NCBI GenBank assembly: GCA_964527555.1
Contig: CAZGOG010000002.1
Location: 41,698-105,697, forward strand
Direction: 5' to 3'
Length of the DNA: 64,000 nucleotides
Origin: an uncultured Planctomycetia bacterium
Lineage (GTDB): Bacteria > Omnitrophota > Gorgyraeia > Tantalellales > Tantalellaceae
This document shows, one piece after another, positions 17,861 to 53,301 of the stretch. The notes below the pieces were generated by a model. That model worked only from the letters and a program-made list of their open reading frames with translations, had not been told where the DNA came from and did no database searches. The position numbers were made by a program, and so were the translations under genes. The first letter of the stretch is position 1; each line of letters begins with the position of its first letter.

Positions 17861-18178
17861 TCAGGCGTCTTCTATTATCTTGGGGACTTTAAAGAAACCG
17901 TCTTTCCTTGCAGGCGCATTGCTCAGGGCTTCTTCCGTCGGAAGAGGCTCTGCCGGTTCGTCTTCACGGAATACGTTTTTCATGGACGTAAGAACATGTG
18001 TAGTCGGAAGGGTGCCTTCGGTGTCGACTTCGCCCAGCTGCGCTATATACTCCAGGATCTGCGAAAGCTGCCCCCTGAACTTCACAAGGTCTTCTTCCTT
18101 GAGGCTCAGGCGCGCAAGTCTTGCAACGTACCTGACGAGATCCTCTGTGATCGCTGTTTTTTTGTCGGCGTGCTCCAT
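17861..18178 (-). CDS. gatC: Glutamyl-tRNA(Gln) amidotransferase subunit C
   Basis: 105 aa. LARLSLKEEDL ... typical GatC, immediately upstream of gatA. Confidence 0.85.
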   Translation of the reverse strand: MEHADKKTAITEDLVRYVARLARLSLKEEDLVKFRGQLSQILEYIAQLGEVDTEGTLPTTHVLTSMKNVFREDEPAEPLPTEEALSNAPARKDGFFKVPKIIEDA

Positions 18179-19110: not shown

Positions 19111-19233
19111 GTGAAGCTCCATGGGCTAACGCCCATGGCATCCACAGTTTCAGTCTTTCCGTCAAGCGGAATCCTGCACCGAAGGCCATTCATCCACGCC
19201 CTTACGGGCGTGGCCTTCCGGTGCATGGGCAAA
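19111..19233 (+). repeat. 123-bp structured interspersed repeat, copy A (orientation gtgaagctcc...catgggcaaa)
   Basis: Read directly. Near-identical to 43978..44100 and to the reverse complement of 39128..39250 and 53179..53301. Contains hairpin ccatgggc-taac-gcccatgg and a nested hairpin tgcaccgaaggcc[attcatcc acgccc-ttac-gggcgtgg]ggccttccggtgca. Confidence 0.9.
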
Positions 19234-37402: not shown

Positions 37403-39166
37403 CTACTTCTTCTTCCTGAAATCCAGCCAGGGCGCGTATTCCCTCTTGGGCTGCACCGCTTCGGTGTTTCCTACAGGAACTTCTACCTGTTTCTGGGTGG
37501 TTTTCAGCTTCCCCGTCATAAGCACGGGGGCTGTTTCGGTTTCCTCGGCGCTTTCTTTCTGCGTTATGTATTTATCAAAGTGCGGCTGGGTCTCGGAATC
37601 AGCGATGGAATCCATGGCGTCTTTCACCAGGTGCACCGTGACGAAAAATACGATCTCAGTTCTTCGGATTTCTTCGGATTCGTATTTGAAAAGACTTCCC
37701 AGAACCGGTATGCCACCCAAAAGGTCGCCCAGTATCGGGAGTTTATTATCCTCTGTCACCAGCTCTTTCCGTATAAGCCCCCCCAGGAAAATCGTGTCTC
37801 CGTCTCTCACCCTTATGATCGTGTTAGCCTCCCTGGAATTAAACGTAAGGGCCACTGTTCCCTGCTGGGCCGCTCCGGCAAGCGTGAGCACGCTAAAGCC
37901 TTCGTTATTAGAGACTTCCGGCAGGAGATTGACGGAGATGTCCCCTTCTTCGTTGACATGGGGGATCACCACGAGCTTCACGCCGACTTCCCTGGCATCC
38001 TCTATATCTTCAAATTGAACGGTAACGGTCGTGGAGGTATCTGTACTCTGCAGCGCCTCCTGCAGCATTATTTTCTGGATTACCTTTATAGTGGCTCTTT
38101 GATTATTCAATGTCGTTATACGGGGACTTGAAAGTATCTCGGAATCGCCCCTCTGGTCTATAAGCGCCAGAGTCGCGGTAAAGGTACTAAAGTCCAGGTA
38201 ACCATACGTGAACAGATCCGTGCCGGCGAGAGCCTGGGCAACCGCGGGGATACCTGTATCCGTAATCCAGGGAAAAGTTGGAGCAAATCCTCTTCCTCCT
38301 GTCGAAGGATAATACTTCTCATCCGGCGCACCGTTTAAAAACGGCAAGGTCCCGTCGTTTTTAAAGGGAAAGGTGATCGGCTTTTTAGCCCCGGCAGCCG
38401 TTATTACCGCGTTCCAATCCACGCCGAAACGTTCGTCCTCGTTTAAGAGGATCTCGACAACTTTCGCATCAAGTATGATCTGGGGGGTCTTCTTGTCGAT
38501 CTTGCTTATCATCGTTTTGATGTCGCTTATGCGCGCGGGTATCGCCGTTATCACTATGGAATTAACGCTTGAGATATATGTGGCTTTTTCGCCCTGCCTG
38601 GGGTTAAGGATTGAGTTGATCGCCGTCATCAGCTGGTTGATGCTTTCTTCCTTCTGCTCTACAAGCACCTCTTCATTGCCTTCTTCCGTTTTGGTCAGCT
38701 CAATATCACGTATGAGGTGATTTAAGGGTATGACCTCTGTCACGGGCTCTTCCGCGTGAAGCTGTCCTTTGGGTATGACCCTTATGATGTCGCCCTCGCG
38801 TGAATAGACGTATCCGTAGTTTCTTGTCACGATGTCAAGTGCCACTTCCCAGGGTTTGTTCCTTAGACGCATGGTGACCAGGCCCTCGACTCCGGGAGAC
38901 GGGATTATATCGACCCCGCTTACCTCGGAAAGGTAATGAAGGACTGTCTTTATATCCACATCCTTGAAATTGACAGTCACGTTCCCGGCTTCGGCCAAAG
39001 GCTGGCCTATATCCTCTTTGACCGGGGATGTTTGGGCAGCACCCGCAGGTGAAACATTCACCTGGGCATATGAATCCACTATTAGCAGCGAATTCATAAA
39101 TAAAATCGCAACAACTGGCGCAAGAACTTTTACCCATGCACCAGAAGGCCACGCCCGTAAGGGCAT
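37403..39166 (-). CDS. pilQ: Type IV pilus secretin PilQ
   Basis: Secretin N-domains (VTVNFKDVDIKTVLHYLSEVSGVDII) and a C-terminal secretin domain (GDTIFLGGLIRKELVTEDNKLPILGDLLGGIPVLGSLFKYESEEIRRTEIVFFVTVHLV). The long ORF starts at 39271 inside repeat copy B. The plausible start is an ATG at 39166 (MPLRAWPSGAWVKVLAPVVAILF... signal-like), also inside the repeat. Start uncertain. Confidence 0.85.
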   Translation of the reverse strand: MPLRAWPSGAWVKVLAPVVAILFMNSLLIVDSYAQVNVSPAGAAQTSPVKEDIGQPLAEAGNVTVNFKDVDIKTVLHYLSEVSGVDIIPSPGVEGLVTMRLRNKPWEVALDIVTRNYGYVYSREGDIIRVIPKGQLHAEEPVTEVIPLNHLIRDIELTKTEEGNEEVLVEQKEESINQLMTAINSILNPRQGEKATYISSVNSIVITAIPARISDIKTMISKIDKKTPQIILDAKVVEILLNEDERFGVDWNAVITAAGAKKPITFPFKNDGTLPFLNGAPDEKYYPSTGGRGFAPTFPWITDTGIPAVAQALAGTDLFTYGYLDFSTFTATLALIDQRGDSEILSSPRITTLNNQRATIKVIQKIMLQEALQSTDTSTTVTVQFEDIEDAREVGVKLVVIPHVNEEGDISVNLLPEVSNNEGFSVLTLAGAAQQGTVALTFNSREANTIIRVRDGDTIFLGGLIRKELVTEDNKLPILGDLLGGIPVLGSLFKYESEEIRRTEIVFFVTVHLVKDAMDSIADSETQPHFDKYITQKESAEETETAPVLMTGKLKTTQKQVEVPVGNTEAVQPKREYAPWLDFRKKK

Positions 39167-39250
39167 GGATGAATGGCCTTCGGTGCAGGATTCCGCTTGA
39201 CGGAACCCTGAAACTGTGGATGCCATGGGCGTTAGCCCATGGAGCTTCAC
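39128..39250 (-). repeat. 123-bp structured interspersed repeat, copy B (reverse-complement orientation)
   Basis: The reverse complement of 39128..39250 aligns end-to-end with copy A, with only a few transitions and a 1-nt indel. Lies between pilP and pilQ and overlaps the pilQ 5' end. Confidence 0.9.
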
Positions 39251-43977: not shown

Positions 43978-44100
43978 GTGAAGCTCCATGGGCTAACGCC
44001 CATGGCATCCACAGTTTCAGTTTTTCCGTCAAGCGGAACCCTGTACCGAAGGCCATTCATCCACGCCCATAAGGGCGTGGCCTTCTGGTGTATGGGCAAA
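43978..44100 (+). repeat. 123-bp structured interspersed repeat, copy C
   Basis: Same orientation as copy A with ~10 substitutions, mostly C>T transitions that convert G-C pairs into G-U wobbles in the nested hairpins. Lies between pilA1 3' end and the TMTC-like gene start. Confidence 0.9.
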
Positions 44101-53178: not shown

Positions 53179-53301
53179 TTTACCCATGCACCAGAAGGCC
53201 GCGCCCGTAAGGGTGCGGATGAATGACCTTCGGTGCAGGATTCCGCTTGACGGAAAGACTGAAACTGTGGATGCCATGGGCGTTAGCCCATGGAGCTTCA
53301 C
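53179..53301 (-). repeat. 123-bp structured interspersed repeat, copy D (reverse-complement orientation)
   Basis: The reverse complement aligns with copy A over its full length. The inner stem carries a compensatory A-T to G-C change. Lies 10 nt downstream of the radical-SAM gene stop and upstream of the GGDEF gene. Confidence 0.9.

Follow-up and report, generated by a model that had tools for sequence, protein, structure and literature searches.

A repeat that occurs four times in a 64,000-nucleotide stretch of DNA from Candidatus Omnitrophota (the window) is very probably, at a probability of about 0.85, a 118-nt non-autonomous transposon of the IS200/IS605 family, a PATE that consists of little beyond fused left and right ends. 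Every testable structural property of IS200/IS605 ends is present in the element. The initial annotation had described a structured, interspersed, MITE- or REP-like mobile repeat inserted in both orientations, and this much is borne out.

Alignment of the four copies, which lie where they were first reported, shows 94–95% mutual identity and unrelated flanks. Similarity begins sharply at GTGAAG and stops at GGG(T/C)AAA, and in the orientation of the original annotation all four copies have the ends GTGAAGCTCC...CATGGGYAAA in common; all four agree throughout the first 43 nt, for which the chance expectation is 0 matches. A length of 123 bp had been given for every copy, which is correct for all except copy B, which is 122 nt. 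The mobile unit is nevertheless 118 nt, and the final five bases of the annotated unit, G[T/C]AAA (TTTAC or TTTGC on the opposite strand), are the target site. Inspection for a target duplication and a flank consensus in the annotated orientation yielded nothing except A-richness, and the element was therefore re-read on the other strand, referred to here as the top strand.

Read in this way, each copy has the same layout: the TTTAC target; 15 nt ending in AAGG (CCATGCACCAG-AAGG in the complement of the window consensus); the hairpin CCACGCCC-GTAA-GGGCGTGG; AT (continuing as GAAT in the consensus) ... GATG; the hairpin CCATGGGC-GTTA-GCCCATGG; and AG-CT-TCAC, with which the element ends. The left-end hairpin (HP2) and the right-end hairpin (HP1) both have 8-bp stems and 4-nt loops, and lie in direct orientation on the same strand. 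The features of the four copies are as follows.

19111..19228, top strand = minus: copy A, 118-nt element, with its right end (RE) at 19111 and left end (LE) at 19228, between pdxA and rsmA
19229..19233, minus strand: copy A target pentanucleotide TTTGC (C_L = TTGC), native pdxA sequence
19119..19138, minus strand: copy A right-end hairpin HP1, CCATGGGC-GTTA-GCCCATGG on the top strand, counterpart of IPR of IS608
19194..19213, minus strand: copy A left-end hairpin HP2, CCACGCCC-GTAA-GGGCGTGG on the top strand, counterpart of IPL of IS608
19111..19118, minus strand: copy A right-end tail AG-CT-TCAC, with AG as predicted triplet-forming bases and TCAC (19111-19114) as predicted right cleavage site C_R
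19139..19142, minus strand: copy A predicted right guide G_R, GATG, directly 5' of the HP1 foot on the top strand
19214..19217, minus strand: copy A predicted left guide G_L, AAGG, directly 5' of the HP2 foot on the top strand
19192-19193, minus strand: copy A dinucleotide AT that follows HP2 on the top strand
39134..39250, top strand = plus: copy B, 117 nt (1-nt-deletion subfamily), with HP2 at 39149-39168 and HP1 at 39223-39242
39129..39133, plus strand: copy B target TTTAC, which is GTAAA on the pilQ sense strand, within native codons Val8-Lys9
43978..44095, top strand = minus: copy C, 118 nt, with HP1 at 43986-44005 and HP2, its loop altered, at 44061-44080
44096..44100, minus strand: copy C target TTTGC
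53184..53301, top strand = plus: copy D, 118 nt, with HP2 at 53199-53218 and HP1 at 53274-53293
53199-53218, plus strand: copy D HP2 stem CCGCGCCC/GGGTGCGG, which holds a compensatory pair
53179..53183, plus strand: copy D target TTTAC

The RNA fold of the annotated strand has an energy of -61.6 kcal/mol (z = -7.0 against shuffled sequences), with z = -5.1 for the opposite strand; folded as DNA, the opposite strand gives -37.2 kcal/mol (z = -6.8 against shuffles). Both perfect 8-bp hairpins and the long outer stem of the initial annotation are present, although the outer stem and the inner hairpin have two G residues in common and so cannot both reach their full length. In ggccttcCggtgca the 'C' is bulged out, and the position is T in 31 of 32 copies. 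The middle (P2) hairpin (columns 41-67 of alignment A2; window positions 19151-19176 in copy A) exists as two perfect versions with differing stems, CAGTCTTTCCG/CGGAAAGACTG and CAGGGTTCCG/CGGAACCCTG, and the majority of copies in the 32-copy alignment are a mismatched hybrid of the two, a pattern that could have arisen by recombination between subfamilies. An inverted-repeat scan recovered internal hairpins only; the termini, GTGAAGCT and GCATGG, are unrelated, so that there are no terminal inverted repeats. At 118 nt the element is too short for a transposase and has no coding capacity. A small ORF (VKLHGLTPMAS...) noted previously is not conserved, and the related families described below open with ATAAAC, without even a start codon. 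No excised-circle or tandem junction (GGAGCTTCAC joined to CCATGCACC) is present among the loci examined.

Metagenome contigs were scanned with the 20-nt hairpin HP1, which returned 72 loci, and BLAST of the element against these gave 63 near-full-length matches and 32 distinct insertion sites with complete flanks; since the scan demanded the exact 20-mer, copy and site counts are biased lower bounds (at least 32 sites), and HP1 conservation is not to be judged from it. Mean column identity among the 32 distinct sites is 96%, and the family has thus been amplified to dozens of near-identical copies. The survey of copy number and distribution that the initial annotation had suggested gives a minimum of 32 separate insertion sites on metagenome contigs that belong to this same Candidatus Omnitrophota lineage; the proteins that flank the copies match proteins labelled Candidatus Omnitrophota in their sources, and the genomic region of the window recurs on several JGI and ENA metagenome contigs, one of them 379,746 bp long. 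An earlier genome scan with a 22-mer had returned 0 matches because its final two bases are lineage-specific. No match was obtained among plasmids using BLAST with the consensus, or among viral contigs using the HP1 scan, and we know of no report of this repeat family in the limited literature that we searched. At three sites (L036 6559-6740; L032 10961-11142 and 2606-2783) the element occurs as a 182-nt variant, lengthened internally by 59 nt that lie between ATTCAT and the left-end hairpin, and the short form could descend from this variant by deletion between CAT repeats. One of the 182-nt copies (L032, reverse strand) has a GGAAC flank in place of TTTAC.

Comparison of insertion sites with orthologous loci locates the boundaries of the element and its effects on genes. 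The proposal that the copies fill intergenic gaps holds for copy D, which is cleanly intergenic, begins 9 nt past the stop codon of a radical-SAM gene and lies upstream of a GGDEF gene; it does not hold for the other three, since copy B is inside the pilQ frame, copy A replaces the last pdxA codons, and the right end of copy C (GGAGCTTCAC) is 1 nt upstream of the ATG of a TPR gene in the pilus cluster. Copy C also puts a Shine-Dalgarno-like GGAG 7 nt upstream of the TPR-gene start codon, and its left-end hairpin loop (44061-44080) is ATAA instead of TTAC, which resembles a loop inversion.

At the site of copy A, pdxA homologs stop 1–8 residues past ...RA(I/L), whereas the pdxA frame in the window continues into the element, the LE side of which encodes the final 22 residues of the ORF. 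The pdxA-rsmA junction is empty in a relative, L097 (81% nucleotide identity), which carries TTTGC at the spot matching the copy A target; this was the only empty site recovered in a search across all loci examined. Removal of either 118 or 122 nt gives about equally good alignments to L097, and the pdxA site alone therefore cannot fix the boundary.

Copy B is inserted in frame after pilQ codon 7 and adds 39 residues to the signal-peptide region. Upstream are GGGGGGAAC, a strong ribosome-binding site, and an ATG, followed by 7 codons (MKKFSRI), the element, and then GTA AAA GTT CTT... (VKVLAPVVAILFM...; VKVLAPVV...), with a single open frame throughout. Among the relatives used for this comparison L103 reached pilQ, and L101, L102 and L104 stopped short or their contig ended. 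The pilQ ortholog of Ca. Makaraimicrobium starts MRKLDRSGKILAVFTAVIF... and aligns ungapped to MKKFSRI-VKVLAPVVAILF..., with M1, K3, R6, K9, L11 and A12 identical; the alignment of the ortholog MRKLDRSGKILAVF with MKKFSRIVKVLAPV is ungapped only when exactly 117 nt between CGAATA and GTAAAA are removed. It follows that GTAAA, which is TTTAC on the top strand, belongs to native pilQ, and hence that the mobile unit is 118 nt (117 nt in the copy B subfamily) and inserts without target duplication. All three PilQ strain variants in the protein collection have the insertion (3/3). The 1-nt indel of copy B had been taken to break the small ORF; that ORF is spurious, and the deletion has the further effect of making this a 117-nt insertion, such that pilQ remains in frame.

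Further changes were noted around these sites. In HP2 of copy B (39149-39168), a C-to-T change creates an in-frame pilQ ATG at 39166 (MPLRAWPSGAWVKVLAPVV...) and also a C-A mismatch in the top-strand left-end hairpin, which may be a step towards immobilisation and co-option. In L102, from a related Omnitrophota MAG, the contig stops within an ORF (MQYIGVDNHKKFSYLAIMDEKGKI; 17990-18085) just past a pilP-like gene, and pilQ is therefore absent from it; the ORF resembles the start of an IS110-family transposase.

The left-end flank is TTTAC at most of the 32 sites, TTTGC at two (copies A and C), and TTTAT, GTTAC and CTTAC at one site each, two of these three differing at the fifth base; T precedes TTAC at 30 of the 32 sites. 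A TTAC target outside the element is also found in IS608, where it serves as the left cleavage site, at a distance of 19 nt on the 5' side of the foot of the left hairpin. Directly 5' of that foot IS608 has the guide AAAG, AT is directly 3' of the left hairpin, and the right end is composed of the guide GAAT, a hairpin, AG, and then TCAA ending 10 nt from the foot. The window element follows this arrangement nearly position by position. In the IS608 code, c1:g2, c2:g1 and c4:g4 are paired, c3 (A-2) is without a guide partner and touches only T-4 of the cleavage site, and the two bases 3' of the hairpin make triplets with guide bases 1 and 2. Application of this rule to the window family gives Watson-Crick pairs at 3/3 positions at both ends, with TTAC/AAGG on the left and TCAC/GATG on the right. 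The only target position that varies among the window's four copies (TTAC or TTGC) is c3, which is unpaired in IS608.

The same code can be followed in related elements. The HP1 20-mer heads elements of the same architecture that are otherwise different, both in further metagenomes and in Gottesmanbacteria and Curtissbacteria genomes of GTDB, and eight related families are found in Omnitrophota, CPR bacteria and unassigned metagenome contigs. In the annotated orientation these have a shared plan: an 8-nt tail ((A/G)TGAAnCT or ATAAACTT), HP1, one or two variable hairpins, a stem enclosing TTCAT, HP2 with the loop TTAC, then TTTT(C/A), and a closing (A/G)TAAA. One of the related families occupies at least three distinct insertion sites. 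Across the eight families that have HP1 in common, all of the predicted guide/cleavage pairs (48/48) are Watson-Crick, with the seven families other than that of the window having the cleavage/guide sets TTAT/AAAA or AATA; TCAT/GATA; TCCT/GAAA; and TTAT/AAAA. Three compensatory switches are included, at c4:g4 of both ends and at right-end c2:g1. At both ends c4:g4 is C:G in the window family and T:A in the others; right-end c2:g1 is C:G in five families and T:A in three, and in the three T:A families HP1 is followed on its 3' side by AA and not AG, as the base triple predicts. The dinucleotide 3' of HP2 is AT in 8/8 families, the same as in IS608, and spacing is constant, with 15–17 nt on the left and a right tail of 8 nt. 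The HP2 stem has at least two Watson-Crick pair types at 7/8 positions across the eight families, with its loop and flanks fixed; a variable stem with constant single-stranded neighbours suggests that a protein recognises it.

The HP1 hairpin is also found in a variety of other contexts. A Binatia genome (L088, about 818-866) has a 49-nt truncated derivative in which the left-end spacer (TTTAT followed by CCGCCTTCGCGGAAGA) runs straight into the right-end hairpin. Three Planctomycetota genomes have the HP1 20-mer within 100 nt of a gene that matches Pfam Y1_Tnp and the NCBIfam 'IS200/IS605 family transposase', and the 20-nt hairpin, preceded by GTAG, is part of a multi-hairpin unit of about 180 nt (L085 5780-6760; L086 about 1676-2310; L093 about 1429-2003). 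In L085 this ~180-nt unit is directly repeated on both sides of the IS200-type Y1 gene, in a REP/BIME-like manner, with GTAG and then HP1 on the sense strand of the gene; in L086 and L093 the hairpin is ~80 nt downstream of the Y1 gene. Six contig ends of one Gammaproteobacteria MAG (L080, L084, L087, L089, L090 and L095) share a repeat that reads ...TATTTCAA after the top-strand hairpin, which would give TCAA, the IS608 sequence, as its right cleavage site; a full-length, multi-copy element probably caused the assembly to break here. A different repeat surrounds the hairpin in Bacteroidota (Williamwhitmania) and in related contigs from metagenomes (L079, L020, L040, L066, L029, L034, L048 and L062); it begins with GTGCACCG ~30 nt upstream of the hairpin and continues after it with CTAT and more small hairpins. 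In two Acidobacteriota genomes (L081 about 1698-1900, and L083, reverse strand, about 1060-1260) imperfect tandem heptamers (ATCGGAA-type) come after the hairpin, and the heptamer run lies on both arms of a larger palindrome.

The proposed model is that the element moves as single-stranded DNA (peel and paste) through a Y1 HUH transposase, TnpA, that acts in trans. This enzyme would bind the top strand at its two subterminal hairpins (HP2 on the left, HP1 on the right). The cut sites would be recognised not by the protein but through pairing with the tetranucleotide directly 5' of each foot, the flanking TTAC with AAGG and the element-end TCAC with GATG. Excision as a circle would be followed by reinsertion 3' of another TTTAC, with no target duplication. 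Searches using phmmer and a small profile identified no Y1 transposase ORF in the window or in 104 loci (about 880 kb) besides the three Planctomycetota genes; a homolog search with the Planctomycetota TnpA returned Pirellulales proteins only and not a partner enzyme, and no full-length parent element with these ends was seen in the sequence searched. As no Y1 gene is present in the available sequence, we infer the mobilising enzyme, and likewise the strand that would actually be used and any current activity of the family. The initial annotation had raised the possibility that the repeat is the terminal inverted repeat of a larger IS with its transposase elsewhere; a transposase would indeed be needed elsewhere, but the repeat corresponds to fused IS200/IS605-type ends and not to a terminal inverted repeat.

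Besides the absence of a Y1 ORF and of a parent element from the sequence searched, several observations count against this model. The hairpins are perfect, unlike the IS608 palindromes with their extrahelical base. In the window family the long outer stem engages the left guide AAGG, which would need to be freed first, and the variant types at paired positions, read on the proposed top strand, are slightly more often A-C mismatches (15 vs 9). The top strand is on the G-rich strand (lagging-strand template) at 21 of the 32 sites, which is the expected direction, albeit weak and not significant (p about 0.1). We note that every long gene-like ORF in the window (1-64000) is on the minus strand, and that plus-strand GC skew is negative throughout (-0.07 to -0.19), such that the minus strand is leading-strand-like in composition across the window.

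The initial annotation favored a structured non-coding or cis-acting RNA family that is selected for folding and stabilises, terminates or processes transcripts, and it took the strand running from GTGAAG to AAA to be the functional one. The very stable fold (z about -7), the two different perfect versions of the P2 hairpin and the location of the majority of copies in transcribed operons are all consistent with this, as is the A-T to G-C compensatory pair of copy D, which is present as described. Among the 32 copies, the variant pair types at paired positions comprise 15 G-U, 9 A-C and 9 other mismatches, together with 1 single-sided Watson-Crick change and 1 compensatory double change. The reported excess of transitions that preserve G-U pairing is thus weak, the 15 vs 9 asymmetry not being significant, and paired and unpaired columns vary at similar rates; the check for covariation yields the single compensatory pair. 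The orientation of copies relative to genes appears random (2:2 in the window, 11:15 overall), copy B is within the pilQ coding sequence, and there is no T-run after the hairpins, which are hence not terminator-like. The Rfam search suggested with the original description matched no known family, with 0 matches in the window at gathering thresholds and only chance-level matches at E up to 10 for the element and a CPR relative. The conserved single-stranded bases obey a DNA transposase code that reads on the opposite strand, and we consider selection on RNA structure to be unsupported and this explanation very unlikely. It is likewise improbable that the family is a stand-alone omega-RNA-like guide cassette or a trans-acting TnpB/Y1 platform, or that some of its copies have been co-opted by the host. 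A role beyond that of selfish DNA is raised by the span from Omnitrophota to CPR bacteria (with the truncated derivative in Binatia), the invariant right-end hairpin and the lack of a transposase in sight, and host co-option by the in-frame ATG and hairpin mismatch of copy B and the GGAG of copy C. In the guide RNAs of TnpB (omega RNA or reRNA), the structured region ends at the IS200/IS605 right end and a TTAC-type target is the adjacent motif, and the element is alike in having a structured right end and an adjacent TTAC-type target. It differs from them in having no tnpB nearby, no Rfam match and no sign of transcription, and in being shorter than known scaffolds, a comparison tested by Rfam searches only.

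Other classes of mobile repeat were also considered. A classical MITE moved by a DDE transposase, like the Correia, ERIC or RPE elements, would similarly be ~120 bp long, interspersed, highly structured, and present in or beside genes in both orientations. It is contradicted by the absence of terminal inverted repeats and of target-site duplications at the pilQ and pdxA sites, and by the asymmetry of the ends, whose subterminal hairpins lie on a single strand; there is next to no chance that this explanation is correct. If the family were a repeat of REP/REPIN type, kept up by a domesticated RAYT (REP-associated tyrosine transposase) present in single copy and not derived from a true IS, this would account for dozens of near-identical copies with no transposase nearby. 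This reading also draws on the Pirellulales genomes, where the HP1 20-mer flanks Y1 genes and is preceded by GTAG as in classical REPs, and where one source names some relatives of those Y1 genes RayT. These Pirellulales proteins nonetheless score as IS200/IS605 transposases and below the RAYT model cut-off. With two unlike hairpins arranged in direct orientation, and a left end distinct from its right end, the window family is neither a REP singlet nor an inverted doublet; its guides are GATG and AAGG and not GTAG, and it has a TTAC-type flanking target and the IS608 guide/cleavage code. We therefore regard a RAYT-maintained repeat as quite unlikely, and prefer a non-autonomous IS200/IS605 derivative.

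Assignment to the IS200/IS605 family accounts for a conspicuous repeat of an uncultured phylum with no need for a new RNA class, and indicates that very small, ends-only derivatives of this family have spread in Omnitrophota and CPR genomes. It also corrects two gene models, in that the pilQ signal peptide carries a 39-residue insertion and the pdxA frame runs into the element for its last 22 residues, and such repeats can more generally break assemblies and mislead ORF calling. The families provide a natural test of the IS608 mechanism, as guide/cleavage pairs and one base triple co-change across divergent families as crystal structures predict. If a partner TnpA or TnpB is found, the element would offer a compact single-strand transposition substrate of ~118 nt with readable targeting rules.

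Among known systems, REP/REPIN repeats resemble the family in their short GC-rich hairpins and many copies and are handled by Y1 HUH enzymes, and the identical hairpin sequence is part of the GTAG-REP-like unit beside Y1 genes in Pirellulales. REPs are, however, single palindromes or inverted doublets with a 5' GTAG, and are without distinct ends or a TTAC-type target. The element differs from IS608 in being only 118 nt in all, without tnpA or tnpB, and in its shorter spacings (15 vs 19 nt on the left, and a right tail of 8 vs 10 nt); its perfect 8-bp stems are without the extrahelical T of the IS608 palindromes, the long outer stem arises from pairing of its left spacer with bases on the 3' side of the hairpin, and a fifth target base (T) is nearly fixed. 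Features in common with IS608 are subterminal hairpins that lie on the same strand at the two ends; a TTAC target that flanks the element without belonging to it, and no target duplication; a greater distance between cleavage site and hairpin on the left than on the right; the dinucleotides AT and AG on the 3' side of the left and right hairpins, respectively; and guides 5' of the hairpin feet (TTAC/AAAG and TCAA/GAAT in IS608; TTAC/AAGG and TCAC/GATG here). PATEs, described in Haloquadratum walsbyi and other genomes, are defined by no inverted terminal repeats, near-terminal palindromes, no target duplication, a length too short for a transposase, a 4-5-bp targeting sequence, and a palindrome that is farther from the 5' end. 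The family described here is distinguished from these by its Candidatus Omnitrophota host (CPR bacteria have relatives of it, and Binatia a truncated derivative), by being without an identified parent IS605-type element, and by the one longer variant of 182 nt. It agrees with the published definition of PATEs in all features tested, and with more than 90% identity among its copies it corresponds to their 'homogeneous' type.
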